Shown: positions 1-61,599, counted from the stretch's first letter. The stretch is 64,000 nt of DNA from an uncultured Gammaproteobacteria bacterium (GCA_964596525.1 CAZQUL010000001.1:678509-742508), one strand, 5' to 3'. Numbers and translations: made by a program. The notes: generated from the sequence alone by a model not told the origin.

Positions 1-3000
1 CGCGACGAAAACTGCCGCAGCACCACCCCGGTTCTTACCACGACCGACGTTTATTTGGAAAAAGAAAGCAATTACACGGTTCTTAAGATCGCCAACTCGC
101 GCGCTGGATCCATTCCGCTTGAACAGGGGACGCTCTACCAGGTAATCGTTTCGGCGTCGAGCACTAATCCGTTTGCTAGCACGAACCAGATCTGGTCGGC
201 GGCGCGTCTCAATGACCCAACCACCTTCAGTCGTCCATACAACGGCGCTTTTACCTGGCGCTTTAAGACCAAGCGCGACAGCTGTCGTATTGATCGGGTA
301 GAAATCAGCCCGAGCGAGTATGTGGGCCAGAACATCAAAGACCGTTCGTCGTTTGAGGCGGCAGCCTTTACGTCGCCGGATAGCTGCAGTGCCCAGGGCC
401 AAAAACTCAATCCGTGGCTCGTTGGCTGGAATTGGACTTCGAGCGATGAAAAAGTAGCTACTCTTTCCACCTTCAATACGAAAGGAAAAAATCCCTCCTG
501 CAGCGCGGAATGTGTCCGTCGTGGCAGTGCAGTTCCAGCAGGCACTTCGGCTACGGTTCCTTTGTGTGGCAATGGCATTATCGAAGCTGGTGAAGATTGC
601 GATCGACCGGATAAAGCCAAAGGTTGCAGTTTGGATTGCCGTTTTATGGGTTCTACAGGAGCGACGTGCGGAAATGGTACGGTTGAGAAGGACCGTGGTG
701 AAGCCTGCGACCCCAAAGACCCTGCCACCCAAATTGGTTGTAGCTCGGACTGCCGCAACCTAGGTGCTGAACAAAACGTTTCTTCTCGGGAGGTAACCGC
801 TTCAATTTGCGGTACCGGTGTTATGGGTAGCGGTAAAGATTGCGATGTGCAAATCCCGGGACAGGTGAGTGATCCGCGTTCGGCACTGTTCTGCTCGGAA
901 AAATGCCTCCATCAGGGTACGCCGCTTTCGAGCGCGTGGTGCAGTGATAATCGCCTTACCAAAGGAGGTTTCACTACGATTGAATACGATGCGGCGTGCT
1001 CTAAGGCCCTTAGCCAGTGCGGTAACGGTTTTTTGGAACCAGAAGAAGATCCGGGTTGCGATGGTACGAACGGTTGGAATAAGGCTGAATGCAATGAATT
1101 CTGCAAAAAAATGACTGCAGCCGAGTGTATCGCTTCGTCCGAAGGTTGCGATCCGCAAGGACGTCTCCTTGGTTCGAGCTTGTCGTATTCTATTCCTTCG
1201 GTCTGTGGTGATGGAAAAGTAGGTATCGGTGAAGTGCCGATGTGTGAAAACAATTTGGTTTCATCAAATCGTGACGGGCTTATCGATCCGTGGTCGTTGG
1301 CCATTGGCCAAGGTCTTGGTATGCCAAGCGGTGATCCGCCGACCCAGAAAACGATCGTTACTGGTGGAACCTCGCAGCAGACGACTGGCGGAATCAAGTC
1401 TGGCCAGGCCACCTTCGCGTTAATGTGCGGCTACAGTACGGACAACGAATGCCAAGCAGTCTTTGGTAATGATTACGGCGTAGGAGCTAACACCTGCTGC
1501 ACCAAACGTTCGTCCCTGATTTCTACCTATCCAGCCAACGGTACTACTAATGCATGTCCTAATACATACCTTGAGGCGCTTTTCGATAGTCAGATTGATC
1601 AAGTTACCCTCAAAGAAGGTATCGTGATTGCTCGTGGTGCCGATGATTGCGGTTCAGCCGAAGAGGTGACCGGAGTTGTTGCGGCGTTAACTGCGCCGCG
1701 CGCCAGCGAACGGTGGTACGCCCGTGCGTGGAATGAAGTCCGTTCGTGGTTTGGTACGAGTGTTACTGCTGCGCCGACTAAGTGGTGCGTGGCACCCGAT
1801 ACCGCCACTGCCGAAGTCGTTCCTGCGCCAGAAGTGTCGCCGCAGGCTTCGCGTATCCGTGTCAAACTTACTAAACCGCTGGCACTGGATACTGATTATG
1901 CCATCGTTCTCAAAGATAGTATCCGCACGACCGCGGGTGTGAGCGTCGGCCGCACTGCCGGTAAGTTCCTTTCCTGGAAATTCAGCACGGTGACCCAGAT
2001 TTGCGAGGTAAATAGCGTTGCTGTAGAGCCAAAAGAATGGTCGTTTACCCGTGCCAATGCCACAACGACGCTTGCCGCTAAAGCGAAAACCAACAACGGC
2101 ACGTTCATCCAGGGCGTCCCAGGAGTTTATGACTGGAGTTACGTGTGGGGTCCGTTTAATGACGCTTCGGTAGCTGTACAAAATACGAGCTCTTCGGCCA
2201 ACATCATCACCGCGCAAAACAGGAATGGTGAAACCATGGTTCGCGCCTCAGCAGTTATTACAGCCAACCAACTTACAACTGCGACCGGCACGGCAGCTAC
2301 CGGCCAATCCCGCGTGATCGTGCTTTTGTGTGAAAATCCGTGGCCGCCGAAAGATCTGCGCCTTAACGGCCAGGGACCGTTTAGTATCTTCCCGTTCGAC
2401 GACGCGGTTGGCAATAACGACGGTTTTGACCTTACGTCCAACACCTTCAACAACACCCCGTTGCCAGCATCGCCAGTAACACGCGAAGGATACTTTAATT
2501 TCAGCACTTACTACTGTGCGGATAAAGGCGTGCCAGGCACGGCCGATGACCTGCCATACTTACGCGGCACGGTTCAAATTTCGCCGACTATTGTTTCGGC
2601 TACGACCTCGCTCAAGCGCTTCTTGTTCTCTAATACTAAGAATTCCGATGTTGTTGGTATCCAAGTCTTCCCCAACCCGGGACATTTGAGTGCTGCCGAA
2701 TGGTACTCACTCGATCGTGCTCAGGGTGGTCAGGGCTTCACCGGCCAGCTCCAGAAACTCACGGTAGATGGCTACGAGGCGGTCTCGGACGGTAATAATG
2801 TCTATATCGACGGCCTCAACTACGCCGGCTCAACGAATGCGCTCTTCAGCAATATTTATCTGGTGAGTATTAATGCGAATGCGCAGGCCGATACGCGCGC
2901 CGTGTTCGATCAGATACTCAAAAACTTCAAGATCGCTACCAATCTCACTAATTATGGTTACTGCGGTGTGAACGCTGATAAACCGTCCTTTACGACGCAG

Positions 3001-6000
3001 TGTCGTGTTGATCTTGAGTGCCCCTCAGGCCAGGTCTGTTCGGCGGTCGAAGACAAATTACGCCGCAACTACCAGCGTTTGCGCGGCGCCCGTACCTTGC
3101 AGAACGCACTTAGTGCTTACAGCGCCGCCACGAATGGCACCTATCCGGAATTAGCCGAAGGTTCATACCTTAAAGGCCAAACGCTCAGCACCTGGCCGTC
3201 GTGGTCCAACTTGGCTACGGCGCTCCGTACCGATTTGCCGGGCGACCCGATTAATGCTTTAGCTCCAGCTGGAACGTGTGAGCGCACCACAAACCGCTTC
3301 TGTACCCAGAACGCCGAATGTCCGACCGGAGAAGCGTGCGTTATCCATGATCAGCAAACTGCATGGAGTGTTCAGGATCGTCGCTTCAGCTTTGCGTGTC
3401 CCACGTCTTCGCTCGCGTATCGCTACATTTCTATTTCGCCAACCAAGTATCTCGTTAAAGGACGGCTCGAGGATGCTGGTATTTCTCTCAGTAATCTTGA
3501 TACGCTTATTCGCGACTTCGTTGATCCGTCGTCCTTCATCTTTACAGATAAGAACGGTATCTGTAATCAAGATCAAGAAATTTCTACGCTCAACCAGGGC
3601 CGCTGCGGTGATGGTGTTATTAACTACAGCCGCGGTGAAGAATGTGACCCGGTAGGTTCGCAGCGCTTTGGTGCATGTTCGGCTGAGCAGGCTGGCCGTA
3701 TTCGGGTCGATGTATGTTCCTCGAGTTGTACGTTTGTGCCTTCTTCCACGCCGTTTATTGCCTGCTCGGCGTTGAGCTCTTGTGGTAACGGCAAAGTGGA
3801 AGCTGGTGAAACCTGCGACGACGGTGTCTTGAACGGTACTTATAACCATTGCTCGAAATCGTGTACGTATCCGCCGGCCGATCCGCCGGGGTACTGCGGT
3901 GATGGAAAAGTTCAGGGGGCCAATGAAACCTGCGATATCCGCGCCGGTTTGGGTGGTCAGCCAGGTTGGTGTCTGGGCGGTGTGAACAATGGTGCCCCAT
4001 GTACGACAAGCGCGACCTGTAACATCAAAGATGCAATGGATAATGGCGTCGCGATTTCGCTCAGCTCACAGTCTGGCGTGTGTCGTTTGGTTGAGACCAA
4101 TGCCGGACGATATGCTCCGGCGCAAGCTAATTCCTGCAGTTTCGATTGTAAAGCCCGTGGTGCGTACTGTGGTGACGGTATTGTGCAAACCCAATTTGGT
4201 GAAGAATGCGACGGTGCAGCTGCCTGCACGGTATCTGGCTTACCAGGCAGCAAACAATGTTCGAGTTCATGCCGCTTGGTGGATGCAACCGCAGCCGGCT
4301 GGTGGCGCTTCAGTGACTTTACCCGCTACTCCCGTTCGGCGACGATGGCTGATCCCTATCTTACCGTTGCCGACAGCGCCAAGGGTATCGTCGAAGATTT
4401 GGTCTGTGTTGATACAGAATGCCCCTCCTTCAGTATGGATGGTAAATTCGGAGGCGCCTTTAGTTTTAATGGTTCGCACTTCTTGAGAGGAAATGACGTG
4501 ATGACTCGCTCCGCCGCACTCAACGCCACATCGTCTTTGACGGTGGAAGCCTGGGTGTACCCCACCAATCGCGCGCCCTGGATGCGTATTCTTGAGAAAG
4601 GCGGTTACCAGCGTGACGGCGGCTATACCTTCCAGTTCGATGAAAAAGGGGAAAAAGCTTCGTTAGCTATTTGGAATGCGGGGGCATCCATGGCAACCAG
4701 CGTTACGGGACGCACCATCATTCCGCTTAACCGTTGGACGCATGTCATGGCTACGTATTTACGCACCGATGCGACGCATTCTTTGCAGCTCTTCGTTAAC
4801 GGTGAGCTCGACAATGCGGTCACGATCGATAGCGCTGGCATGCTCCTTGCTCCGTCTGACGATCAGATCATCATCGGTCGGGCCACCTCTGGTGGAAGCG
4901 GTTTTATTGGTCGTTTAGATGAACTGAAAGTGCATCTGCGCGCTCTTAACCCGATAGAAATCCAAGATCGTGCCGCGAACGAATCGGTCTGTTCGCTCAC
5001 TTCGGTGCCTAAAGTGGCGGCGGTTGCCCCAGGCGCTTCCTGCGGTGATGGCAAAGTCACCGAAGGCGAGGCGTGTGACCGTGGCGCTCAAAACGGCGTA
5101 CCGTGCGTCCCGGCGTATGGCAAATCCTGTTCCTACTGCCATAGCAGCTGCCGGGTAGTTATCGATGTTCAGTCAGCGGAATTTTGTGGTAATGCCAAAG
5201 TCGAAGCGCCAGAAGCGTGTGAAACCGACGCTGCCACTCAGCTTATCTATTCTGCGCTGCCCAACAGTACTACCAAACAAGAAAAAGACCCTCGTTATAA
5301 TGGTTACGAGGTTCTCTCGTGCGCGGACGAAGCGACAGCTCCCGATATCGTTAAGAAAGGTACTAAATCGTGTGTAAGTTCTTGCTCGGCTGTCCAATCT
5401 AACTGCGCAATTTGCGGTACCGATCTCGAACGCGGGGTAAATATTGCGGGTAGCGTCATTAACATTCTCGATCCCAAGAATCCTAATCCGCTCTATGATC
5501 AGGGGAGGATGGACTTGACGATGTCGGCTAATTCCACGGATAAGCGTGTGGGAGTTGCGGCGTGGTCGGCAGCGAGCGCTATCGAGTATAAACTCCGTCC
5601 GGCTTCGGATCCGTACTCAACCACCGATTTGGCCAAGTTGAGCACTGACAGCCGTTGTTCTTTCGGTGAAGGTCCGCTCTATACCATGTACTTCAACGGC
5701 GATAATACTCACCCGTTCAATTTCCCGGTTTTGGCTAAACCTGAAACATGGCAGAATGATTTCGTGCTTTCGCCAATTATCAACCGTAACGAGCGCCCGA
5801 ACGACATCCGTGTAGTCGTGCGCTGGGTGGGAACCGCGGTTGACTTTGTAAGTGGCTGGCAGGTGTTCCGCGCCGATCCGGATAATCCGTATCAGCTGAC
5901 AACGGTTGAAAGTACGGCGTACAGTTCCAATAATATCCGGAAAGGACCGAACTATTACGATTATCCTCCCGATATTTTGAACGGGTTGTGGTACCACGGC

Positions 6001-6345
6001 TTCACGACGACGAAAGGTAATACGAATGCCATGTCGTTCACCATCAATTCCAACGCCTTGTATAATGATAAGTATATTTTCTTCGTCCGCTTGCCGAACG
6101 ATGTGCAGGGAATTTCTCGTTTCCGCAGCAATACCCAGCTAAAGGTTGAAGTATATGTTCCAGAAGACGGTCCGGCTAATGCTTTTGCTGTACCGGCTGC
6201 GACCTTCTATTTAAACCAGGCAGCCTCCTCGGAGAATCCGAATGCTTCCTACTGGCAGGTGTTTGCCCTCAAACGTGATCCGTCAGCCCAGCCTAAAGAC
6301 CGGATTCTGCGCATCGACAAAATAACTACCGATGTGCGCCTCTAA
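1..6345 (+). CDS. Giant secreted/surface protein, 5'-truncated at the window edge. Carries about 11 myxo-type cysteine-rich repeats (CGxGxxExGExCD) and a LamG/ConA-like lectin domain.
   Basis: The frame is open from nt 1, with no stop upstream of the TTG at 55, and the stop is TAA at 6343-6345. Repeats such as CGNGIIEAGEDCD, CGDGKVEAGETCDDG and CGDGIVQTQFGEECDG match the Myxococcus-type Cys-rich repeat (TIGR02232-like). A LamG_3-like stretch, FNGSHFLRGND...EAWVYPT...WTHVMATY...FVNGELD...IGRLDELKV, lies at about nt 4370-4980. Confidence 0.75.
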   Translation, partial: RDENCRSTTPVLTTTDVYLEKESNYTVLKIANSRAGSIPLEQGTLYQVIVSASSTNPFASTNQIWSAARLNDPTTFSRPYNGAFTWRFKTKRDSCRIDRVEISPSEYVGQNIKDRSSFEAAAFTSPDSCSAQGQKLNPWLVGWNWTSSDEKVATLSTFNTKGKNPSCSAECVRRGSAVPAGTSATVPLCGNGIIEAGEDCDRPDKAKGCSLDCRFMGSTGATCGNGTVEKDRGEACDPKDPATQIGCSSDCRNLGAEQNVSSREVTASICGTGVMGSGKDCDVQIPGQVSDPRSALFCSEKCLHQGTPLSSAWCSDNRLTKGGFTTIEYDAACSKALSQCGNGFLEPEEDPGCDGTNGWNKAECNEFCKKMTAAECIASSEGCDPQGRLLGSSLSYSIPSVCGDGKVGIGEVPMCENNLVSSNRDGLIDPWSLAIGQGLGMPSGDPPTQKTIVTGGTSQQTTGGIKSGQATFALMCGYSTDNECQAVFGNDYGVGANTCCTKRSSLISTYPANGTTNACPNTYLEALFDSQIDQVTLKEGIVIARGADDCGSAEEVTGVVAALTAPRASERWYARAWNEVRSWFGTSVTAAPTKWCVAPDTATAEVVPAPEVSPQASRIRVKLTKPLALDTDYAIVLKDSIRTTAGVSVGRTAGKFLSWKFSTVTQICEVNSVAVEPKEWSFTRANATTTLAAKAKTNNGTFIQGVPGVYDWSYVWGPFNDASVAVQNTSSSANIITAQNRNGETMVRASAVITANQLTTATGTAATGQSRVIVLLCENPWPPKDLRLNGQGPFSIFPFDDAVGNNDGFDLTSNTFNNTPLPASPVTREGYFNFSTYYCADKGVPGTADDLPYLRGTVQISPTIVSATTSLKRFLFSNTKNSDVVGIQVFPNPGHLSAAEWYSLDRAQGGQGFTGQLQKLTVDGYEAVSDGNNVYIDGLNYAGSTNALFSNIYLVSINANAQADTRAVFDQILKNFKIATNLTNYGYCGVNADKPSFTTQCRVDLECPSGQVCSAVEDKLRRNYQRLRGARTLQNALSAYSAATNGTYPELAEGSYLKGQTLSTWPSWSNLATALRTDLPGDPINALAPAGTCERTTNRFCTQNAECPTGEACVIHDQQTAWSVQDRRFSFACPTSSLAYRYISISPTKYLVKGRLEDAGISLSNLDTLIRDFVDPSSFIFTDKNGICNQDQEISTLNQGRCGDGVINYSRGEECDPVGSQRFGACSAEQAGRIRVDVCSSSCTFVPSSTPFIACSALSSCGNGKVEAGETCDDGVLNGTYNHCSKSCTYPPADPPGYCGDGKVQGANETCDIRAGLGGQPGWCLGGVNNGAPCTTSATCNIKDAMDNGVAISLSSQSGVCRLVETNAGRYAPAQANSCSFDCKARGAYCGDGIVQTQFGEECDGAAACTVSGLPGSKQCSSSCRLVDATAAGWWRFSDFTRYSRSATMADPYLTVADSAKGIVEDLVCVDTECPSFSMDGKFGGAFSFNGSHFLRGNDVMTRSAALNATSSLTVEAWVYPTNRAPWMRILEKGGYQRDGGYTFQFDEKGEKASLAIWNAGASMATSVTGRTIIPLNRWTHVMATYLRTDATHSLQLFVNGELDNAVTIDSAGMLLAPSDDQIIIGRATSGGSGFIGRLDELKVHLRALNPIEIQDRAANESVCSLTSVPKVAAVAPGASCGDGKVTEGEACDRGAQNGVPCVPAYGKSCSYCHSSCRVVIDVQSAEFCGNAKVEAPEACETDAATQLIYSALPNSTTKQEKDPRYNGYEVLSCADEATAPDIVKKGTKSCVSSCSAVQSNCAICGTDLERGVNIAGSVINILDPKNPNPLYDQGRMDLTMSANSTDKRVGVAAWSAASAIEYKLRPASDPYSTTDLAKLSTDSRCSFGEGPLYTMYFNGDNTHPFNFPVLAKPETWQNDFVLSPIINRNERPNDIRVVVRWVGTAVDFVSGWQVFRADPDNPYQLTTVESTAYSSNNIRKGPNYYDYPPDILNGLWYHGFTTTKGNTNAMSFTINSNALYNDKYIFFVRLPNDVQGISRFRSNTQLKVEVYVPEDGPANAFAVPAATFYLNQAASSENPNASYWQVFALKRDPSAQPKDRILRIDKITTDVRL

Positions 6346-16728: not shown

Positions 16729-18729
16729 TTAGCGGCCTGAAGAAGGGCGGCGAGATTGGCGTGTCCGCACGGCAGACGGCAAGGAGCTCGAAGGGCGAGG
16801 TGCTCCGGAATGGCGCAAGCGGTGCGTGAGGCCAAAAACGGCGGCTAAGATAATGATGGTTACGGCGATCGAAATGCCGATGGTGGCATACCAGAAACGT
16901 TCGCGTGCTGAGAGTCCCTCCCCGCTGCCCCACACGCCAAATTTCAGCGGCGTGCTCTTGAGTTGCTTTATCTCAGCATACGAAAATTGATTATCTTGAT
17001 TCACTACCAGTGTATTTCCTGTGGTGTCATACCATCCTTCTCCTGCCATAAGCGTGTCAGTAAGGCGAGAGAGACCTTCGGGCCAGAACGTAGTTGTGAG
17101 CGAGATGACGGGGTATTCTTTTTCGAGAAATGTTTCAAGTACTGCGAAACGTCCAGCCATGTTCATGCGGGCGGAAAGTTCCGGGGCAGCAACCGTAAGC
17201 GAAGGTGGGTCGATGAGACGTTGCAATGACGGAAAAAGAGTGGGTTGCGAGCTGATGAGCACCGAAGGTTTGGTAATGTCGATGTCGGGATGAAGCCAGT
17301 TGACCGTTGGACGTAAGGGGCGAGGGCTTAAGCGTTGCCAGAGTGTTATAAGGCGTGCGGCAGCATTCCAGGATCGCTCATCGTTTTTTTCGACGAAGAG
17401 ATCGAATACCGGCAGAAGTGCTTGCGGGAATTTATCGAAAAGCGGAGTAAAAATAGGGGATGAGGTGGCGGTAATAAATGAGGTTGCGTCGATATCGAGT
17501 GTCATGTTGTGTAGTCCGATACGACAGTTGCCGCCGGGAGGGGTGTAGTTAGCAATGATATCTAGTTTATTGTCACGCGCTAGAAATTCATCGGGAAGTT
17601 CGATGGTGCGGCGAAAACGTTCACCCTCTTCGGAAAGAGCGTAAGAATCCACGAGGTGATTATTAAGAAATGTCGCCAGCGTCCCTATGCCACCTTTTTG
17701 CAATACCGAAGAAATACCGTGCAGATTCAAGCTGATGTTACGAACCGGGCCGCCCAAAGCCGCTTGCGAGAAACCAATAGTGGTTTTTGTTTCTCCGGAG
17801 CCTTGCAGTCTTAGCAATGGATAGCCAAGCTCCTTGAGATCTAGATGGTAAGAAGTAGTAGGGAAAAATGGGGTGCGGGCAAACGTAGTGTCACTATTTT
17901 TAGTCAGGAGTAGTTCGCGGACCGGAGATGAGAACAGGGTTTCGACTGCTTCGTTTAGGTGGTCGGGTGCGGCGGAAAGCGCGAGGATTGGCCAGCCGTT
18001 ACTCGCGGGAACAAGGGTGAGGCGGGGAATGGTGCTTGAGCTAGAAGTAATAAGCACGGCGCGTTCGTAAGGACCGATACCTGGCGCGTCCAAGGTGCGC
18101 GCTGCAACCCGCACATCGATTGCACGGCCATTTAAAAGATGCTGTGTCCGGCCGGCTAAATTGAATGCGGCAGTGAGTTCTTCTGCGGTTGGAACCGGGG
18201 AGACGTAAATGGCTAGGCGCCGCAAAGTCGGTGGGAAAAAATCTTTAAGCGTCGCTGGTTTTTGCGCGTCCCCGTCTACCGTTACACGGATATCTGAAAT
18301 ATCGATCCAACGGGCCCGTAACGCCGAGCATGTGTCAGTATCGCTTGATACCATAACGGCTCGCAGGGAAACCGTCAGCCGACCGTCTTCAACCGGCAGG
18401 TTGGTAAGAGGGAAAATAACTTCTTGAGGTTTGGAATTAAAGGCAAAGCTTGCAACTAGCCGACCTTGGTGCTCGAGAGCTATGAAACCATCGCCGATAT
18501 TGGGAGTAGGGGTAAGGTAAAACCGCATGTCTACGGGCGTCTGTCCGTTGGCTACAGGGATGGAAACGAAACTCTCCGCATTGGTTCCGCTTAGGCGCAC
18601 GCTTTCCCCGTATCCGTAATCATGTAGCGAAAATTCTTCGAGGGCAATAGCCGGACGCGCAAAACAACCTATCATCAATGTGAAAAGAACGGAGGTGAGT
18701 TTATAAAAGAGATTCTTTTTTTGTCTCAT
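16729..18729 (-). CDS. Large periplasmic/exported protein with an N-terminal signal and a C-terminal TM anchor. Possibly a BcsB-like partner subunit of the adjacent GT2 synthase.
   Basis: 666 aa. The N-terminal hydrophobic segment is LTSVLFTLMIGCF, and the C-terminal TM is WYATIGISIAVTIIILAAVFGL followed by a basic tail. It lies downstream of the processive GT2 gene, the same gene order as bcsA-bcsB. No catalytic motif recognised. Confidence 0.4.
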   Translation of the reverse strand: MRQKKNLFYKLTSVLFTLMIGCFARPAIALEEFSLHDYGYGESVRLSGTNAESFVSIPVANGQTPVDMRFYLTPTPNIGDGFIALEHQGRLVASFAFNSKPQEVIFPLTNLPVEDGRLTVSLRAVMVSSDTDTCSALRARWIDISDIRVTVDGDAQKPATLKDFFPPTLRRLAIYVSPVPTAEELTAAFNLAGRTQHLLNGRAIDVRVAARTLDAPGIGPYERAVLITSSSSTIPRLTLVPASNGWPILALSAAPDHLNEAVETLFSSPVRELLLTKNSDTTFARTPFFPTTSYHLDLKELGYPLLRLQGSGETKTTIGFSQAALGGPVRNISLNLHGISSVLQKGGIGTLATFLNNHLVDSYALSEEGERFRRTIELPDEFLARDNKLDIIANYTPPGGNCRIGLHNMTLDIDATSFITATSSPIFTPLFDKFPQALLPVFDLFVEKNDERSWNAAARLITLWQRLSPRPLRPTVNWLHPDIDITKPSVLISSQPTLFPSLQRLIDPPSLTVAAPELSARMNMAGRFAVLETFLEKEYPVISLTTTFWPEGLSRLTDTLMAGEGWYDTTGNTLVVNQDNQFSYAEIKQLKSTPLKFGVWGSGEGLSARERFWYATIGISIAVTIIILAAVFGLTHRLRHSGAPRPSSSLPSAVRTRQSRRPSSGR

Positions 18730-18773
18730 ATAACTCTTTTATGATACCATATTCCTGCTTATCAAGAAATTTT

Positions 18774-19163
18774 ATGCCGCACTTCCTAATTGTTGAAGAC
18801 GATGAATTTTTGGCCGATGCGTACCAAGCGTTTCTCAAAAAACGCCACCACACCTTTGATATCGCGCATGATGGGGCTGAGGCCTTGCGTATGATTGATA
18901 AAAGAAAACCGGAGGTGGTGATTCTTGATTTGGTGATGCCCAACGTTGACGGAGTCGCCTTCCTTAAGACGCTAAAAAAACAGAATCTTTTGGATGACAT
19001 GCCAGTGATCGTTGCATCGAATATCTCTGATAATGAGACTATGGAAGAATGTAAGAAACTGGGGGCTCGTGATTTTATTGTAAAAAGTTCTTCTTCGCTT
19101 AATGAGCTTATGGAGCGTTCTTTGGCACTTCTCGCGCCGTCGCGGACATCAAAAAGAAAATGA
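18774..19163 (+). CDS. Stand-alone CheY-like response-regulator receiver domain.
   Basis: FLIVEDDEFLADA (acidic pocket), phospho-acceptor D in VVILDLVMP, then VIVASN and the conserved K in FIVKS. Start taken at the internal ATG 18774 (MPHFLIVEDD). Confidence 0.75.
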   Translation: MPHFLIVEDDEFLADAYQAFLKKRHHTFDIAHDGAEALRMIDKRKPEVVILDLVMPNVDGVAFLKTLKKQNLLDDMPVIVASNISDNETMEECKKLGARDFIVKSSSSLNELMERSLALLAPSRTSKRK

Positions 19164-19197
19164 TCAGCTTAATTTTTTAGGCCGTCAATTATTTTTA

Positions 19198-19231
19198 ACC
19201 CGCCATGCCTACAAAGCGTGGCGGGTTTTTT
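19198..19231 (+). terminator. Terminator of the receiver gene, overlapping the 3' end of the convergent GT2 CDS.
   Basis: Hairpin AACCCGCCATGC...GCGTGGCGGGTT followed by TTTTTT on the + strand. Confidence 0.5.
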
Positions 19232-21119
19232 CCCAGCGGTAGGGTGAGCGGACAAATTGCCAGAGTGCTCGGTAACAGGCGACGCTTATGAAGAGCCAAT
19301 AAATTGGTAAGAGGGGAATATAGGGAAGCAAGTATAATTGGCGGCGTTTTACCGCAACAACGGCATGCACGATCATTTGGGAAAGATTGCCGATGATAAG
19401 GTTGAAAATGCCAATATAGCGGAAGAGGAGTGTGGGAATAGGAACTGACAGGAACGTTGAAAATGGCAAGAACGATGCGGCGAACATGCACCAGAGTAAT
19501 GGATTAAAAAGAGGAAGAAAAAAATTGGAACCCACAGTAAATAAGCCGCTTGCATATCGCTTGAGCCCGACACTCTTAATGGCTTTGATGGGGTGGGCGG
19601 CATGAACAAGGAAGGTGATGAAAAACCCTTTTTCCCAACGCGTGCGTTGTCGAATCCAGTTTCCTAGCAAGCTATTTGCCTCCTCGAGAGTGTAGGAGTT
19701 GACAAGCGCAGTGATGAGTCCGTAATCGTAGATGCGTACACCCAAATCTGCGTCTTCTGTAACATTGTACGGGTCCCAGCCGCCGATACCTTTTAGATAC
19801 TTGGTGGGGAAATGATTACTCGTTCCCCCGAGGGGGATTGCTCCGCCCACTTCTTGGCTGCCCGGAAGGTAAAAATCATACCAAAAACCGTACTCGAGCG
19901 AAAATAAACGAGTTAAAATATTGCGTTTGGTGTTGTAAAAATTGAGACGTGCCTGCACGCAGACCGTGGTGAGGGCCGATCGACGAAAAGCGGCAATCGC
20001 TTTTTTGAGTTGATCTGGGTCTGGCCGATCTTCGGCGTCGTAAATAACGATGAACGAGCCGCGGGCAAAGCTTAGCGCGTAGTTGCATGAGCGGGGTTTG
20101 GTAGACAATTCAGCTATGGGCACTTTGACATGTTCGGCCATGAGCGCTTCCGGTGTTGCGTCGTTTTCGTGTTGGCCGATGCCGTGGGCGTGGAGTGCGG
20201 CGATGGTGGTAGTGTCGTTTACTTCGGTAATGAATTTAATATCGAGTTTTTCGCGTGGATAGTTTAGCGCAAAGAGATATTTAACAAGCTGAGGCACCAT
20301 TGCCGCTTCGTTCTTGAGTGGGACGAGAATGGTGTAGATTGGGAGCTCGTCGTCGGTTATGGAGTTTATCTCTTCTTCTTTTACCTGGATAAGGTGTGTG
20401 GGTTGGAAAGAACGAGAAAATACGTAAATTTTAAAAGGATTAAGAAAAAAATAAATGACATTGAGCGTTATGAAGGTGCCTAAGACGAGGGGAAATGGCC
20501 AAAGCCATAGACCTAACGCATAGAAGGCTAAAAAGCCGAGAGGAAAAACGTAGGGTACAAGCAGTGTGCGGTAGTGGCGGCTGGAGTAATCTTGCTTGAG
20601 CACTTCGATTCGATCGGTGGCAGTGATATCCAGTTCATGGCGGTAGGCGAAGGCGAGTGCGGAGCGGAGTGTGTTGGGAGGGGCTAGCGAGAAATGAGTC
20701 AGTGGCTGGCCGAGAAAGGCACTGAAAAGATCAACAGTCTCTTGAGCGATGAAGGGGGTTGCCGCTGCGAACCACACGGCACCGTTTGATTCGTATACTA
20801 AGATCTGGTGCTCGATAGCTATCTCGGCGGGAATAAGGCTAGAGACTGCCCCGGTGGGAGTTAGGTTGAGAGGAATCTCTTTAAGCAGGGGAACATCAAG
20901 AATATGAGCGAGATTCTCGTAGAAGTTATGTTCCTTGGCGTATCCTTTGAGAATTATTTTTTCAAGCGGGTGGTCTTCATGTTTAATGATCTCTTCGATG
21001 TGCTGAAAAGCCGCTTTTTTAAAAATTCGTTCATTGAGCAGTTTTTTGTTTCGCAAGCGTGGTAAAATGTTCGTGGAGTATATCGAGCGCGCGTTCCTCA
21101 TGGGCAGATTTTTGTACAT
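19209..21119 (-). CDS. Processive family-2 glycosyltransferase (cellulose/chitin/hyaluronan-synthase-like) with an N-terminal T2SSE_N-like cytoplasmic domain.
   Basis: GT2 DxD in VIYDAEDRPDPDQ and the QxxRW motif (IRQRTRWEKGF), with multiple TM helices on both sides. The N-terminal 170 aa (LAHILDVPLLKEIPLNL...LIPAEIAIEHQILVYESNGAVWFAAATP...) resembles the GspE/MshE N-terminal domain. Confidence 0.8.
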   Translation of the reverse strand: MYKNLPMRNARSIYSTNILPRLRNKKLLNERIFKKAAFQHIEEIIKHEDHPLEKIILKGYAKEHNFYENLAHILDVPLLKEIPLNLTPTGAVSSLIPAEIAIEHQILVYESNGAVWFAAATPFIAQETVDLFSAFLGQPLTHFSLAPPNTLRSALAFAYRHELDITATDRIEVLKQDYSSRHYRTLLVPYVFPLGFLAFYALGLWLWPFPLVLGTFITLNVIYFFLNPFKIYVFSRSFQPTHLIQVKEEEINSITDDELPIYTILVPLKNEAAMVPQLVKYLFALNYPREKLDIKFITEVNDTTTIAALHAHGIGQHENDATPEALMAEHVKVPIAELSTKPRSCNYALSFARGSFIVIYDAEDRPDPDQLKKAIAAFRRSALTTVCVQARLNFYNTKRNILTRLFSLEYGFWYDFYLPGSQEVGGAIPLGGTSNHFPTKYLKGIGGWDPYNVTEDADLGVRIYDYGLITALVNSYTLEEANSLLGNWIRQRTRWEKGFFITFLVHAAHPIKAIKSVGLKRYASGLFTVGSNFFLPLFNPLLWCMFAASFLPFSTFLSVPIPTLLFRYIGIFNLIIGNLSQMIVHAVVAVKRRQLYLLPYIPLLPIYWLFISVACYRALWQFVRSPYRWEKTRHAL

Positions 21120-21200
21120 CTCGCATGAGGCGTTGTAAACGATCTTCGAGAACGAGTAACGATGATACGGTGGTGGTTGCAGTGAGGATAAGCTTGGTTT

Positions 21201-21422
21201 TCATATAGTACGTTTTGGACGCAGTAGCGAATCAATTATCTCTTCGCGTTCCTGAACCAACCCTGCGGCGGTGGAGAAAAATTTTTCCCAGTCGCCCCGT
21301 TCGGAGGTGGGTAGCGTGCCGAGATAATTGCGCCAGCCTTGAATTTTATTTTTCATGAGCTTTGTTATCTCGCGTGCTTCGATAAGGGCGTCGCGGGGGA
21401 TAGTCTTTCCTTTTTTGTTCAT
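21201..21422 (-). CDS. Hypothetical small protein.
   Basis: 73-aa ORF between the GT2 gene and manC with plausible, non-shadow composition. Its start codon abuts the manC ATG at 21423. Confidence 0.3.
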   Translation of the reverse strand: MNKKGKTIPRDALIEAREITKLMKNKIQGWRNYLGTLPTSERGDWEKFFSTAAGLVQEREEIIDSLLRPKRTI

Positions 21423-22430
21423 ATGAAAAAACTACGTATTGCTCCGGTCTTGGTGGGAGTAATTTATGCGGGTGGTAACGGCACAAGGCTTTGGCCGATT
21501 TCTACGGCGGAAAACCCCAAGCAGATCAATACGGTTTTTACGGGCAAGAGCATGGTGGTTGAGGCGTACCGCCGGGCACGACTTTTTCTTCCTCCGGAGC
21601 GTATTGTTGTGGTAGTGACTGCGGCTCTTTATCCAAAGGTTTTCGCTGCGTTGGATCTGCCGGTGCGTAACTATATTATACAACCCAAAAACGCCGACAC
21701 CGCGAGCGCTTTCGCATTGACCGCCTTGGTTCTGGAAACATTATACCCCGGCGCCGTGGCAGTGACCATCTATGCCGACCATATTGTTCTTAATACACGG
21801 CGCTACATTGCGGCGGTGCACGAAGCGGCTCGTCTTGCTAGAAGCAAACATGCGCTGGTTACTATTGGCACTAAACCACTGTATCCAAACCCGCTTTTTG
21901 GCTATATCAAGCTCAAGAAAGAACGCCTCGCTCCTAACGTTCATACCGCTATCGCGTTCGTTGAGAAACCAACTATTGAACAGGCTAGACGATATATTTC
22001 TTCGCATCAATACGTGTGGAATACTGGCTTATACGTATGGGAGCCCACGGCAATCCTGCATATTTTTAAACGCTATGCCACAGAGTTTTACCAGGCTCTT
22101 CTTGCGCTGCGGGCTTTTATTCTAACGCCTGATTTCGATCGCCAACTGGCGCGTTGGTACGGCTATATCAAACCAGTATCGTTTGAACGACAGGTATCGG
22201 AACGCATGCAAGGTCTCTACGTTCTGGTAGCTGATTATGCGTGGAAAGATCTCGGTAATTGGAATGTGATTTATGAGGTTGCCGGCAAGAATGCGGCGCG
22301 CCACGCGCTTCTGGGTGAAAAACCGGCAAAATTCGTTTCAGTAGATAGTTCCGGATGCTTGCTGCTTGCGCCCGGTAAAAAAGTGGCACTCATAGGAGTG
22401 AAAGATCTGGTAGTGGTCGGAGACCGATGA
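21423..22430 (+). CDS. Mannose-1-phosphate guanylyltransferase-like sugar nucleotidyltransferase.
   Basis: GGNGTRLWPIS matches the GGxGTRLWP motif of ManC/GMP-type NTP transferases. Start taken at the internal ATG 21423. Confidence 0.75.
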   Translation: MKKLRIAPVLVGVIYAGGNGTRLWPISTAENPKQINTVFTGKSMVVEAYRRARLFLPPERIVVVVTAALYPKVFAALDLPVRNYIIQPKNADTASAFALTALVLETLYPGAVAVTIYADHIVLNTRRYIAAVHEAARLARSKHALVTIGTKPLYPNPLFGYIKLKKERLAPNVHTAIAFVEKPTIEQARRYISSHQYVWNTGLYVWEPTAILHIFKRYATEFYQALLALRAFILTPDFDRQLARWYGYIKPVSFERQVSERMQGLYVLVADYAWKDLGNWNVIYEVAGKNAARHALLGEKPAKFVSVDSSGCLLLAPGKKVALIGVKDLVVVGDR

Positions 22431-40446: not shown

Positions 40447-42087
40447 TTATTGAACGATGAATTTGAAGATGCCCGTATCAACCAACCGCCCACCTTCGCC
40501 CTGGGCATAGATACTGACGTGTATCTTGTATTCACCCTTAACCCAGTTCGCGCCGGTAAAGACCGTCGGCGAAAGAGTCATAGTAGTCCCGGGGGTAACC
40601 GTGAAGGTGGCGTTCGTCCTGGATACTAAAGCGCCTTTGGGGTTGGTAATGTAGCGTTCGATGCGCAGTGGGCCGCTGTAGAGGCGCTGGTTTTTCTTAT
40701 CCATGTAATTGCTCTTCACTGAATAGCGGAAGAAGAAGAGGTTACCGGCCTTAATCGTCATGCCGTTTTGGAGGCTGTACGAGATATTTGAGGGTGGAAT
40801 GTAGTTTGAGCCAATCAATTGCACCTCGTTGGAGCTCGGGCCGACGTTTTTGTCGGCGCTAATGGCGGCCACGAAGTATTTATAGGAACGATCTGGGATG
40901 GCCAGGTATTCACTATGGGTGGTTTGCTCCGTTTCTTTAACAAGGACAGCTTGCGCGCCATCGTTACCAACACGACGATAGAGGCGATAGGCGGCTGCGC
41001 CAGGAATTGCATTCCAGCTTAATTCACCGCTGTACATCGAAGTGAGTTTGCCGGTGAGTGTGGGCGCAGTAAGTGTCGCTCCAGGAGAAACGCTTACTTC
41101 GGCTGAGCTTTGACCGCTTTCACCTTGGGCGTTTTCAGCGCGTACGTAGTACGTGTATGTCGTGCCAGCCGTAAGTCCGCTGTCGGCAAAAGAAGGTGAT
41201 GTTACTTTTCCGACAATCGCGTAGCTCGAACCATCCGGGGCGCGACGGTGAACCGTGTAGGCACTCGCACCAGAAACTGCTGTCCAGTTAAGCCGGATGC
41301 TTGTCAGTGAGGTGATTGAGGCAGAAAGGCCGGTTACCGGACCGGGCACTGCTGCCGGAGGTGGAATGTTGATGGTCGTCGGGGCGGGTGGTAAGACCGG
41401 TGTCGAAAGGGCGAGGTAGGCAGTGCTACGGGTGGTGCCGTCATTTTTGCGTGCCGTTACATAGTAGGTGTATGTGGCGCCGTCAGACAAGCCGGTGTCA
41501 TCATAGTAACTCTGGATCGTGTTGGTGCTGCTATAAATTTTGGTGAACGTGCCACCAGAAGGAGCACGGTACACATCGTATCCCGCAATGTCCTGGAGAG
41601 CCGACCAGCTTACGTGAAGTGATGTGGGGGAGTTATGATGGCCGTTGATTACGAAGATCGAGGCTTCCTGTGTGGCCGAAACCATCGGCGAATTACTGCT
41701 TTCAAGACTACCGTTTAAGGCCGCAATCTTGTAGTTATATTTTTTATTTTCGGCAACCGAGTAGTCATCATAAAAAAGCTGTGTTCCCGGTGTCCAGATG
41801 ACTGGGCTTTGGCTGGCAAAATCCATGTCACTGCCTTCGGTGCGATAGACGACGTAGTTTTGCACGGTGCCGGTTTCTGAAGCGTCCCAGCTCACGGTAA
41901 TGCGGCCCGGGATGTTCATCGTGATGCGGGGGTTGCGCGGAGCGCTTGGGGTGCCCATCATCATGTCGCCCATTTCTTTGGCGAAAACGAATGTCGGCGT
42001 TGTCGCCGTGGCGAGGAGGCTCAGAATGCCAACGGCGGTGAAACTGAGCCGGTGGAGAGTCCGAGAATTCTCTGAGGAGAGTGCCAT
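40447..42087 (-). CDS. Secreted cell-surface protein with multiple fibronectin type III domains (paralogue A).
   Basis: Signal peptide. Fn3-like segments ITVSWDASETGTVQNYVVYRT, LHVSWSALQDIAGYDVYRA, IRLNWTAVSGASAYTVHRR and GELSWNAIPGAAAYRLYRR. Shares the N-terminal AKEMGD...PSAPRNPR with 42226..43953. Confidence 0.6.
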   Translation of the reverse strand: MALSSENSRTLHRLSFTAVGILSLLATATTPTFVFAKEMGDMMMGTPSAPRNPRITMNIPGRITVSWDASETGTVQNYVVYRTEGSDMDFASQSPVIWTPGTQLFYDDYSVAENKKYNYKIAALNGSLESSNSPMVSATQEASIFVINGHHNSPTSLHVSWSALQDIAGYDVYRAPSGGTFTKIYSSTNTIQSYYDDTGLSDGATYTYYVTARKNDGTTRSTAYLALSTPVLPPAPTTINIPPPAAVPGPVTGLSASITSLTSIRLNWTAVSGASAYTVHRRAPDGSSYAIVGKVTSPSFADSGLTAGTTYTYYVRAENAQGESGQSSAEVSVSPGATLTAPTLTGKLTSMYSGELSWNAIPGAAAYRLYRRVGNDGAQAVLVKETEQTTHSEYLAIPDRSYKYFVAAISADKNVGPSSNEVQLIGSNYIPPSNISYSLQNGMTIKAGNLFFFRYSVKSNYMDKKNQRLYSGPLRIERYITNPKGALVSRTNATFTVTPGTTMTLSPTVFTGANWVKGEYKIHVSIYAQGEGGRLVDTGIFKFIVQ

Positions 42088-42174
42088 AGAGGATTAGATA
42101 AAAGTAATTAGTTAAGAATAGTATAACACATTTGTTCCTATTTCACTTAAAAATTCGCACTGTATATAAAACCA

Positions 42175-42203
42175 AAACCACCCTGCGCATGCGGGGTGGT
42201 TTG
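42175..42203 (-). terminator. Terminator after the 42226 gene.
   Basis: AAAACCACCC-TGCGCATGCG-GGGTGGTTT, with a T-run on the minus strand. Confidence 0.55.
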
Positions 42204-42225
42204 TTGAGCGTCTTGGCGTAGAGGA

Positions 42226-43953
42226 TTATTCGACTTTGAACCCAATTGTTTTGCTGTCGATGAAGCGTCCATTTTCTTGGAGGGCGTAGACATTGATCAC
42301 CATTTTATAGTCTCCTTTCATCCAACCAGAATTGGTAATGACGGTCGGGGTAGAGTTGAACACGTCGCCATATTTTCCGTTCCAGATCGCGCTCGTACGA
42401 AATATGGTGGTACCTCTAGGATTAATAATCGAGCGTTCGATGCGGAAGTTTCCCTTGTACGGGTACAGGCTTCTTGTGTCCAAGTAACCACTCTTGACTG
42501 AGTAGCGGAAGTTAAAGGCGTTGCCCGGTTTGATTCTGACGTTGTCCATGCCGTTCACGGTGATCTGCGACGGGGCGACATAGCTGTCACCTAAGAGTAC
42601 GACTTCGTTTGAGTTTAGACTCGGTTTATCATCGGCACCGTATGCAACTACATAATAGTAATAGGGACGATCTGGGATGAACAGACCTTCGTTAAAAGTA
42701 GTTTCTGTTCCTCCGTACAGTACGTTTGGGGGGCTGTCTTTACTATGGCGGCTAAAGAGGGAGTAAGAGACGGCGCCAGGGACCGCGTTCCAGCTCAACA
42801 CGGCCGAAGCTTTTGAGGTAAGTTTGCCGGTCAGTTGGGGTGCGGCGACTGAAGCGACCTGCACAGGGCTGACCTCGGCCGATCTTTGACCGCTGTCAGA
42901 GCTAACATAGTATGAGTAGGCGGTACCTGGGGTAAACGCAGCATCGACGAAATTGGTCCTAAGGAAGTAGCTTGATAATGTACTGATGACTACAGGGGTG
43001 GGGCTACCTGCAGCACGACGGTATACAGTGTAAGCGGTAGCTCCAGGAACGCTGGTCCAGCTCAGCTGGACGATCGTCGGTGACATGACTATCGCGGAAA
43101 GTTGAATCGCAGCTCCCGGAGCGCTGGTTGTTGGGGTTGAGAAGGCGGGAAGAATTGAGCTCGATTGCGGGGCTGAGCTAGATTGGGGAGGTGGAGCGGC
43201 TGGGGTTGAAAGCTGGACAACCCCCGCGCTCCGTGTCGTTCCGTCGTTCTTGCGGACTACAACGTAATACGAATAACTTGTCTCGGGCAGCAAATTAATA
43301 TCGTCGTAATAAGCCGGAGTCAGCGTGGTGGTGTCCCAGATTTTGACATATTCGCCGTTGCCGGTAGTCCGATACACGCTGTAACCAGTATAACCCTCCG
43401 TTGCCTGCTGGGCTGTCCAACTTAGGTGGAGTGAGGTGGGAGAGTTGTGGTGGCCGCTGAGCACAAAGATGGACTGCTCTTGGGTTACAGAAACTAATGG
43501 TGAGTTGGAACTCTCGAAACTCCCTTTTTGAGCGGCAATTTTGAAATTGTACGTTTTGTTTTCCGAAATGCCGTATGCATCGTAGTATGTTTGGGTTCCT
43601 GGGGTAAAAATATTCGCTGAGACATTGGTGAAGTCGGTGTTTCCAGCTCCTTCAGTCATGTATACCGCGTAATATTCTGGAACTCCTGTTTCCGGAGCGT
43701 CCCAGGCGATGCTGATGCGGCCTGGAACGTTCATGGTAACGCGCGGGTTGCGCGGCGCGCTGGGTGCGCCCATGGAGACGGAATCCCCCATTTCTTTGGC
43801 GTACGTAGCGGAAGGGAGACTGAGCGGTAGGGTGAGACCGATTAGTCCAACTCCGATAACGAGCAGTCCTCCTAAGCGGTAGGAAACAGCTCGGTATGCA
43901 ACCGAGTGTGTCATAGAAAAAAATAACGTAAGTAAATTAGTATAGTATACCAT
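42226..43953 (-). CDS. Secreted cell-surface protein with multiple Fn3 domains (paralogue B).
   Basis: Same domain order and N-terminus as 40447..42087, for example ISIAWDAPETGVPEYYAVYMT and IVQLSWTSVPGATAYTVYRR. Confidence 0.6.
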   Translation of the reverse strand: MVYYTNLLTLFFSMTHSVAYRAVSYRLGGLLVIGVGLIGLTLPLSLPSATYAKEMGDSVSMGAPSAPRNPRVTMNVPGRISIAWDAPETGVPEYYAVYMTEGAGNTDFTNVSANIFTPGTQTYYDAYGISENKTYNFKIAAQKGSFESSNSPLVSVTQEQSIFVLSGHHNSPTSLHLSWTAQQATEGYTGYSVYRTTGNGEYVKIWDTTTLTPAYYDDINLLPETSYSYYVVVRKNDGTTRSAGVVQLSTPAAPPPQSSSAPQSSSILPAFSTPTTSAPGAAIQLSAIVMSPTIVQLSWTSVPGATAYTVYRRAAGSPTPVVISTLSSYFLRTNFVDAAFTPGTAYSYYVSSDSGQRSAEVSPVQVASVAAPQLTGKLTSKASAVLSWNAVPGAVSYSLFSRHSKDSPPNVLYGGTETTFNEGLFIPDRPYYYYVVAYGADDKPSLNSNEVVLLGDSYVAPSQITVNGMDNVRIKPGNAFNFRYSVKSGYLDTRSLYPYKGNFRIERSIINPRGTTIFRTSAIWNGKYGDVFNSTPTVITNSGWMKGDYKMVINVYALQENGRFIDSKTIGFKVE

Positions 43954-57540: not shown

Positions 57541-57630
57541 TGCCTGGCTTTTGTGAGAAAGGTGGTTGAGAAATCGATTGCCTTTCAAAAAGGCTGCCTA
57601 CGGGCAACCTCAATACTATTTATCTTATTT

Positions 57631-61483: not shown

Positions 61484-61534
61484 TTCCGCTTCGCAATATT
61501 TTTATTGTTTTGGTACAAAATACCCTTATTTTAA

Positions 61535-61564
61535 TTGACAGATGCCGCCCCCTTCTTCTACAAT
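61535..61564 (+). promoter_or_regulatory. σ70-type promoter (TTGACA-18-TACAAT) for the Wzy_C/TPR gene.
   Basis: TTGACA at 61535-61540 and TACAAT at 61559-61564. Confidence 0.5.
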
Positions 61565-61599
61565 ACGCCACATCGACGGTTTTTTATTTATCAATCCGT

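Follow-up and report, generated by a model that had tools for sequence, protein, structure and literature searches.

An XagB-family polysaccharide synthase with a degenerate MshEN-like domain and a stand-alone receiver as neighbour in a Patescibacteria bacterium

In this study, we analyzed a 64,000-nucleotide stretch of DNA (GCA_964596525.1 CAZQUL010000001.1:678509-742508), referred to here as the window, in which positions 16,729 to 21,119 had been proposed in a preliminary description to encode an exopolysaccharide synthase locus. All three open reading frames (ORFs) of that proposal are present: a processive-type glycosyltransferase family 2 (GT2) synthase of the XagB family (19209..21119, - strand; 636 aa as the longest ORF), a stand-alone CheY-like receiver of 129 aa (18774..19163, +; longest-ORF start at 18741), and a BcsB-fold extracytoplasmic partner of 666 aa (16729..18729, -). 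Searches returned more than 8000 matches for the GT2 protein and, with an exhaustive profile search, 792 cluster representatives for the 666-aa protein, and the three ORFs are considered real genes because all of them have strong homologs. The locus was also found, in identical form, on a 1.34-Mb contig of a public assembly and in a Logan contig. Since the FtsZ protein encoded in the window is 65-67% identical to proteins of Candidatus Magasanikbacteria and surface-protein genes typical of the candidate phyla radiation (CPR) are also encoded there, the host is placed, through its FtsZ relatives, as a Patescibacteria (CPR) bacterium. We are highly confident in the identities of the locus proteins, and the earlier assignment of an exopolysaccharide-synthase locus is supported.

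The synthase matches the Pfam family Glyco_trans_2_3 (5e-17). In alignments of 30-75 homologs, D302, D361/E363/D364 (YDAED, 360-364), E455/D456 (TED, 454-456), as well as Q491, R492, R494 and W495 of QRTRW (491-495), are invariant, in line with the D,D,D,QxxRW signature reported before. In the AlphaFold2 (AF2) model (pLDDT 91.4, pTM 0.91), a disordered segment (residues 1-17) and an N-domain of helical and alpha/beta structure (~24-158) are followed by an amphipathic linker and by two N-terminal transmembrane (TM) helices (187-206 and 208-236; 20412..20561, -). Next come a GT-A catalytic domain (248-480; 19680..20378, -) carrying D302, YDAED, LGGTSNHF (430-437) and TED, and a region with QRTRW and with interface and TM helices that, judging from the model and the Foldseek matches, may form a putative channel half (485-624; 19248..19667, -). 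In total, the model contains 2+3 long TM helices plus interface helices, with the GT-A domain packed on the TM bundle. Because the chain ends just 12 residues beyond the last TM helix (residue 624), the protein has no PilZ domain, as had been noticed from the sequence. These last residues contain a conserved WEKTxH motif (629-634; 19218..19235, -), in which W629, K631 and H634 are invariant and E630 and T632 are found in at least 90% of the same aligned sequences; by analogy, it is possibly a gating-loop-like element.

The best structural matches of the model in Foldseek are BcsA of Escherichia coli and Rhodobacter (2.9e-12), hyaluronan synthases (HAS), the Pyrobaculum mannosyltransferase PcManGT, and chitin synthases, with alignments to BcsA, HAS and Chs1 extending over ~450 columns. 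When PDB sequences were searched, the family profile reached BcsA at 9.5e-15, and the only match of the single sequence was the GDP-mannose-using PcManGT. For comparison of gene neighborhoods, a set of 163 loci of the family was assembled from genomes and metagenomes, and the genes in them were assigned using local profiles (L followed by three digits denotes a locus number). The synthase of the Xanthomonas cucurbitae locus L032 (XagB) matched the window protein with a phmmer E-value of 3e-110, one JGI homolog carries the name XagB, and Xanthomonas XagB has the same MshEN+GT2 Pfam architecture. On the basis of these comparisons and the predicted structure, the protein is a membrane-embedded, BcsA/HAS-like processive-type synthase that belongs to the XagB family and has the full set of catalytic motifs. 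Three other identities were rejected on both equivalog scores and architecture: cellulose synthase CelA (TIGR03030, 42 bits against a cut-off of 699), the poly-N-acetylglucosamine (PNAG) synthase PgaC (33 bits against 422), and NfrB. The true start of the gene is probably the TTG codon at 21056, giving a protein of 615 aa, because a 615-aa gene call is public, the model shows disorder at residues 1-17, and the initial 21 codons are shared with a small ORF that is conserved.

The N-terminal extension of the synthase had been described as T2SSE_N/MshEN-like with a possible capacity to bind cyclic di-GMP (c-di-GMP). The first part of this description stands. The domain (residues ~22-160; 20640..21056, -) matched Pfam MshEN (PF05157) over residues 85-162 with 23.2 bits, just above the curated cut-off (GA) of 23.1, and aligned family members gave clear MshEN matches of 45-52 bits. 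The N-domain of PilB in the PDB was matched by the family profile at 3.9e-7, and residues 28-168 of PilB were matched at 0.0016 by a profile of the 19 closest relatives alone. The second part is not supported: neither the strict, the semi-strict, nor the published relaxed form of the c-di-GMP motif, a 24-residue tandem motif sought twice (RLGxx(L/V/I)(L/V/I)xxG(L/V/I)(L/V/I)xxxxLxxxLxxQ), was matched in the window protein. A hidden Markov model (HMM) that was trained on 17 family members with the canonical motif and spans the 53-residue site scored it at -2.4 bits, compared with 41-84 bits for canonical relatives (75 in Thermoflexus and 41-53 in Xanthomonas). In the alignment, motif 1 has its RLG deleted, an R at the position of the turn glycine and an I for the terminal Q, and in motif 2 R-L-G is replaced by P-L-gap with I or L at the terminal position. 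Thus, the N-domain is, by sequence and profile comparison, homologous to MshEN with both c-di-GMP half-sites lost, and since both 24-residue motifs are gone, control by c-di-GMP through the known binding mode is unlikely. Within the clade of the window protein the domain has been kept without indels (pLDDT >90), at ~30% pairwise identity versus 61% for the GT domain, and therefore appears to have been retained for a different function.

The 666-aa protein matched Pfam BcsB (PF03170) with 30.5 bits against a cut-off of 21, over residues 293-395 only (profile positions 3-108), and a word-index search recovered only seven relatives. Its AF2 model (pLDDT 89.5, pTM 0.83) comprises an N-terminal helix (2-22), a beta-sandwich (31-152), an alpha/beta domain (171-280), a second beta-sandwich (295-423), and a second alpha/beta domain (442-585), that is, a CBD-FD-CBD-FD architecture, followed by a C-terminal TM anchor (helix 608-640; 16810..16908, -). 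In a Foldseek search of the PDB, the best 22 matches were all BcsB chains (E-value 1.5e-32, TM-scores 0.63-0.66, ~644 columns), with BcsB of E. coli and Rhodobacter among them, and the first match after them fell to a TM-score of 0.13. An iterated local profile also reached genuine BcsB encoded beside bcsA in Xanthomonas loci, and the relative in an Ignavibacteriaceae locus (L006) matched Pfam BcsB at 2.5e-42. It does not qualify as the partner of a PilZ-bearing cellulose synthase BcsA, as NF008330 scores 16 bits versus 945, CelA is far below its cut-off for the synthase, and PilZ is absent. Taken with the model, it is a genuine BcsB-fold protein with a predicted signal/anchor helix and a C-terminal TM anchor, the topology that had been suggested for it.

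The receiver, on the opposite strand between these two genes as first described, is canonical: it matched Pfam Response_reg (PF00072) at 1.6e-24 and has the aligned residues D9/D10, D52, S82 and K104. Its positional equivalents in L165 and L167 share 43-45% identity with it. In CPR single-domain receivers, including paralogs encoded away from the synthase, the S/T position reads VASN, and the conserved lysine is mostly followed by S where P is usual (K-S versus K-P). The receivers adjacent to archaeal and Ignavibacterial synthases share a C-terminal helix, ...EQE...E(K/R)(V/I)(A/S)E(F/W)(L/I)E..L (L005, L006, L010, L012, L057, L112, L153); this helical extension is absent from CPR receivers, and therefore two receiver types occur beside one synthase clade.

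The receiver gene is followed by a strong intrinsic terminator (19197..19233, +), which consists of a stem-loop with a 12-bp stem and a 7-nt loop (19197..19227) and a U6 tract (19228..19233); the whole fragment has a minimum free energy of -29.8 kcal/mol (z = -3.5). This hairpin, which was missed by a simple terminator scan, covers the GT2 codons for WEKTRHAL, including the WEKTxH motif, plus the stop codon, so that the overlap with the 3' end of the synthase gene reported earlier holds. Read on the - strand, the hairpin precedes UUAAAAAU and makes a poor terminator with no U-tract, and because of this, read-through of the GT2 transcript, antisense through the receiver gene and into the BcsB-like gene, is plausible. 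The preliminary description took this passage as a necessity; here it is one plausible course. The start codons of the receiver and BcsB-like genes are 44 nt apart. The promoter prediction that had been recommended for this region gave a promoter-like site just upstream of the BcsB-like start (18796..18769, -), in a scan where promoter matches occurred at chance frequency.

Upstream of the synthase, a ManC-type mannose-1-phosphate guanylyltransferase without a PMI domain is encoded divergently (21423..22430, +; gene call of 335 aa, longest-ORF start at 21339). It matched Pfam NTP_transferase (1.5e-28) and ManC_GMP_beta-helix, and TIGR01479 at 3.2e-52. The gap between ManC and the synthase is occupied by two small ORFs: ORF A (73 aa; 21201..21422, -), whose conservation is weak, and ORF B (57 aa; 21031..21204, -), a called gene immediately 5' of the synthase that overlaps its start; the stop codon of A and the start codon of B overlap as ATGA. 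The start codons of ManC (ATG at 21423, +) and ORF A (ATG at 21422, -) abut as CATATG (21420..21425), which leaves no intergenic promoter space, and any promoters must therefore lie inside coding sequence. Homologs of ORF B with 67-71 aa are found at the same position in L165-L169 and share the motif LLxELxxLLVLExKL; they may represent an unrecognized small subunit or regulator of the synthase. No GGDEF, histidine kinase, or BcsG-like gene was found within the 64-kb window, profile searches with jackhmmer found no XagA, XagC or XagD (GH113) gene there, and an Rfam scan of the window detected one tRNA and no riboswitch of the c-di-GMP class or any other.

Across the 163 family loci, the most frequent neighbor is an XagC-like multi-TM protein encoded directly downstream of the synthase (~75 loci). 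These commonest partners of XagB are ~450-560 aa in length and belong to no Pfam family (for example, L003:10157-11587 and L032:9250-10608); neither the window nor the CPR clade to which it belongs has one. BcsB-like proteins, encoded directly upstream, and XagA-like proteins each occur in ~40 loci, receiver-containing proteins in ~36, GH113 in 19, and ManC in 13 loci from several phyla. Unbiased BLAST clustering of the neighbors yielded, beyond the families already identified, only a generic ABC ATPase and antisense artifacts. Beside canonical-motif synthases, the receiver protein is an in-operon receiver-GGDEF (REC-GGDEF) cyclase (Thermoflexus L003; L116 and L147). Stand-alone receivers of 120-170 aa adjoin the synthase in the window and in Moraniibacteria, Bathyarchaeia, Methanomicrobia-type contigs and Ignavibacteriaceae, and are often preceded by a histidine kinase (HK): Ignavibacteriaceae and Methanomicrobia-type loci have operons of the form HK-REC-(BcsB)-GT2 (HK-REC-BcsB-GT2-XagC in L006; HK-REC-GT2 in L012, L090 and L112), and REC-GT2 in Bathyarchaeia. 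Among synthases with a complete N-terminus, the motif is lost in all 12 that are adjacent to such a receiver versus 34 of 128 others (Fisher p = 5e-7, a descriptive value that ignores kinship).

A neighbor-joining tree of 153 catalytic domains placed the motif-less synthases in one clade, in which sequences of Patescibacteria, Ignavibacteriaceae, Methanomicrobia-type and Bathyarchaeia origin are mixed; this mixture implies horizontal transfer of the synthase together with the receiver between bacteria and archaea. Scanning metagenome contigs for close relatives gave none with the single protein and succeeded when based on an alignment. Eight members of the clade of the window were examined (the window, L002, and L165-L170), whose GT2 proteins are 40-55% identical to that of the window. 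A single-domain receiver lies beside the synthase in all eight, convergently in seven and, in L169, downstream on the same strand as HK-REC-REC, with convergent 3' overlaps of the two genes in L165 and L167 as well. ManC is divergent upstream of the synthase in seven of the eight and small ORFs lie 5' of it in six; a histidine kinase is adjacent in three (L002, L169 and L170) and nearby in a fourth (L167). The XagB-family identity, the substrate clue provided by ManC, and the standing of the BcsB-like protein as the less conserved partner (3/8) were not part of the preliminary description.

Based on these neighborhoods and motif comparisons, the reading that we consider somewhat probable is a Patescibacteria Xag-type synthase that would use GDP-mannose and receive phosphorelay input through the receiver, possibly onto the degenerate MshEN domain. 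A histidine kinase encoded elsewhere in this genome, outside the window (it is adjacent in relatives), would phosphorylate the receiver at D52. With no output domain of its own, the receiver must work through contact with another protein; the phosphorylated form would most likely bind the synthase, where the orphaned MshEN-like domain offers itself as the docking site, and would switch polymerization on or off. The BcsB-like protein, by analogy with BcsA-BcsB, may cap the channel of the synthase on the outer side of the membrane and lead the growing chain away. ManC may supply GDP-mannose as the donor for a beta-mannan-type polymer, and transcriptional interference may be a further effect of the convergent receiver gene that lies between those of the synthase and the BcsB-like protein. 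For control of the synthase by the receiver at the protein level, taken by itself, we regard the case from gene order as evenly balanced. The earlier suggestion of phosphorelay or second-messenger control can accordingly be split: the phosphorelay part gains support from the receiver flanking the synthase in 8/8 clade loci and the kinases adjacent in several of them, and the second-messenger part, as far as it runs through this MshEN domain, loses it with the missing motif matches, the motif HMM score and the residue-level alignment.

Several points weigh against this reading. The proposed link between receiver and synthase is drawn from gene neighborhood, and the window has no histidine kinase of its own. 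Sequence comparison does not set the receiver apart from other single-domain receivers of CPR bacteria, given that receiver paralogs in L167 are 39-40% identical to it, compared with 43-45% for the positional equivalents. Motif loss and receiver adjacency may represent one or a few evolutionary events; since the motif-less synthases form a single clade in the tree, the Fisher value is inflated and describes a property of that clade rather than 12 independent events. A non-canonical c-di-GMP site may still exist in the N-domain, and the absence of GGDEF genes holds for the 64-kb window only. A BcsB-like gene is present in only three of the eight clade members (the window counted), and because the other five have none, the BcsB partner is not obligatory. 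As to the donor, GDP-mannose comes from gene neighborhood only, ManC occurs in just ~8% of the family loci, and the family profile scores the UDP-glucose-using BcsA above PcManGT.

The identity of the polymer is a question independent of its regulation. From the conserved neighbors, a beta-mannan-type product made from GDP-mannose is our tentative choice, at slightly less than even odds. It fits the GH113 enzyme of full family operons, as XagD of the Xanthomonas locus (L032:10590-11558) is a GH113 protein (7.9e-32; XagA and XagC match no Pfam family) and GH113 is a family of beta-mannanases, and it also fits PcManGT being the only single-sequence match in the PDB. XagD and the recurrence of ManC together suggest that mannose is the basis of the Xag polysaccharide, and likewise of the stalk polymer proposed for iron oxidizers. 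In our literature search, we found no paper that states a mannose-based Xag polysaccharide or assigns a structure to a Xag polymer, and no description of a bacterial mannan synthase with a BcsB partner. A beta-glucan or cellulose-like polymer made from UDP-glucose, with ManC serving another pathway, is in our view the less probable solution. The closest solved structures and the best profile-sequence matches of the synthase are those of BcsA, its partner has the BcsB fold, many family members are named 'cellulose synthase/PNAG synthase-like' at JGI, and genes of the BcsG family, a phosphoethanolamine transferase family, occur in relatives L165 and L167; however, the synthase falls far short of the CelA and PgaC cut-offs and lacks PilZ, the family operon encodes a GH113 hydrolase rather than GH8, the conserved sugar-nucleotide gene is ManC, and Xanthomonas has separate bcsAB genes beside xag (L056). 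The BcsG-family genes in these relatives (PF11658, the cellulose phosphoethanolamine-transferase family; L165:1624-3414 and L167:1-1137) lie beside ManC, which suggests modification of the polymer in those organisms.

With regard to regulation, the receiver might be a bystander, or its gene might matter at the RNA level alone, by transcriptional interference with the BcsB-like and GT2 transcripts or by antisense effects on them, with the synthase set by substrate supply or expression. The convergent 3' overlaps of the synthase and receiver genes in L165 and L167, the hairpin within the 3' end of the synthase gene, the 44 nt between the receiver and BcsB-like start codons, and the abundance of paralogous CPR receivers of this type are all compatible with this explanation. 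Nevertheless, we consider it unlikely: adjacency has been kept in 8/8 clade loci despite rearrangements (seven convergent, and same-strand HK-REC-REC in L169), and archaea and Ignavibacteria have HK-REC-GT2 operons, where antisense effects cannot apply because the genes are on the same strand. A canonical c-di-GMP-activated synthase, with the receiver placed upstream of it, where it could act on, say, a diguanylate cyclase encoded at another site in the genome, is very improbable, since real MshEN homology, MshEN-GT fusions known as c-di-GMP effectors (NfrB, PMC8669469; PMC5013675) and in-operon REC-GGDEF genes of canonical-motif relatives are outweighed by the missing motifs (RLG absent in both half-sites, motif-1 turn glycine R, terminal Q replaced by I or L), by comparable substitutions that abolish binding in XpsE, by the lack of a GGDEF gene in the window, and by the presence of the same motif-less clade in archaea. 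Archaea are not known to use c-di-GMP. In its boldest form, the phosphorelay reading would extend to that whole clade, in CPR, Ignavibacteria, and methanogenic and Bathyarchaeial archaea, and would have MshEN re-purposed as the docking site of a phosphorylated CheY-like protein, so that a two-component system gates a (probably beta-mannan) synthase directly; we hold this form to be rather doubtful.

The xagABCD genes are needed for a biofilm polysaccharide of Xanthomonas whose structure is unknown (PMC3609779). The synthase of the window belongs to the same GT2 family and has the same layout (MshEN-like N-domain, two TM helices, GT-A domain, C-terminal TM bundle, and WEKTxH). The two systems differ in that XagA/C/D-like genes are not found within the 64 kb of the window, which has BcsB-like, ManC and stand-alone receiver genes, and in that Xanthomonas XagB has kept a recognizable c-di-GMP motif. 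A bcsB-xagB-xagC-xagD cluster is known from the stalk-forming iron oxidizers Ferriphaselus and Mariprofundus (PMC4643136), which likewise pairs a BcsB-family gene with an XagB-like synthase, as do ~40 of the 163 loci; there, a single operon contains bcsB, then xagB, together with xagC and xagD, whereas the order in the window is GT2, antisense receiver, and BcsB-like, without xagC or xagD. The BcsA-BcsB complex has in common with the window proteins the processive GT2 fold, D,D,D,QxxRW, and a partner with the full four-domain BcsB fold and a C-terminal TM anchor. In contrast, the window GT2 lacks PilZ, has only two N-terminal TM helices, scores far below the CelA cut-off, carries its MshEN-like regulatory domain at the N-terminus, and would likely use GDP-mannose, not UDP-glucose.

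MshEN-glycosyltransferase fusions were already noted when MshEN was defined (PMC5013675), and NfrB is a characterized MshEN-GT effector of c-di-GMP (PMC8669469). NfrB, too, combines an MshEN-type domain and a GT2 exopolysaccharide synthase in one protein, but its domain is C-terminal and binds c-di-GMP via intact motifs, compared with the N-terminal, motif-less domain of the window, and its partners are NfrA/YbcH, compared with the BcsB-like protein and the receiver. The N1 domains of XpsE and GspE belong to secretion ATPases and dock onto GspL-type partners, and the domain of the window belongs to a polysaccharide synthase. These N1 domains have the MshEN fold with substituted key R, G, L and Q positions, and substitutions similar to those in the window abolish c-di-GMP binding in XpsE (PMC5013675). 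The components and the bcsB-xagB pairing are thus already known at the annotation level. Two findings appear to be new. One is an XagB synthase clade with motif-less MshEN that, across CPR, Ignavibacteria and archaea, has a single-domain receiver or a two-component system as its constant partner; the other is the substrate clue for the Xag family.

Apart from this locus, the window encodes large surface-type proteins at 1..6345 (+), 40447..43953 (-), 57553..61314 (+) and 61510..63705 (+). The first, an ORF of more than 2114 aa that is cut by the window start, contains Laminin_G_3 and Big_5 domains. Two adjacent proteins with fn3 and GH85_C domains, one ORF of 1253 aa with no Pfam match, and one fusion of Wzy_C (O-antigen ligase) with TPR repeats were also observed among these large ORFs.

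Processive exopolysaccharide synthases are textbook targets of c-di-GMP, which acts on them via PilZ, I-site or MshEN domains, and small-genome CPR bacteria, like archaea, are not known to use this second messenger. The Xag family is widespread and chemically uncharacterized, and in the branch described here the c-di-GMP site has been erased and a single-domain receiver, often together with a kinase, is the constant neighbor of the synthase. If the docking proposal is true, second-messenger input would have been exchanged for phosphorelay input on the same domain, and if the receiver acts directly on the synthase, the clade would offer a simple example of an allosteric module that changed its input during horizontal spread. 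The associations with ManC and GH113 also provide a guess at the product of the whole Xag family, to which both the biofilm polymer of Xanthomonas and the stalk polymer proposed for iron oxidizers belong: it may be a beta-mannan derived from GDP-mannose.

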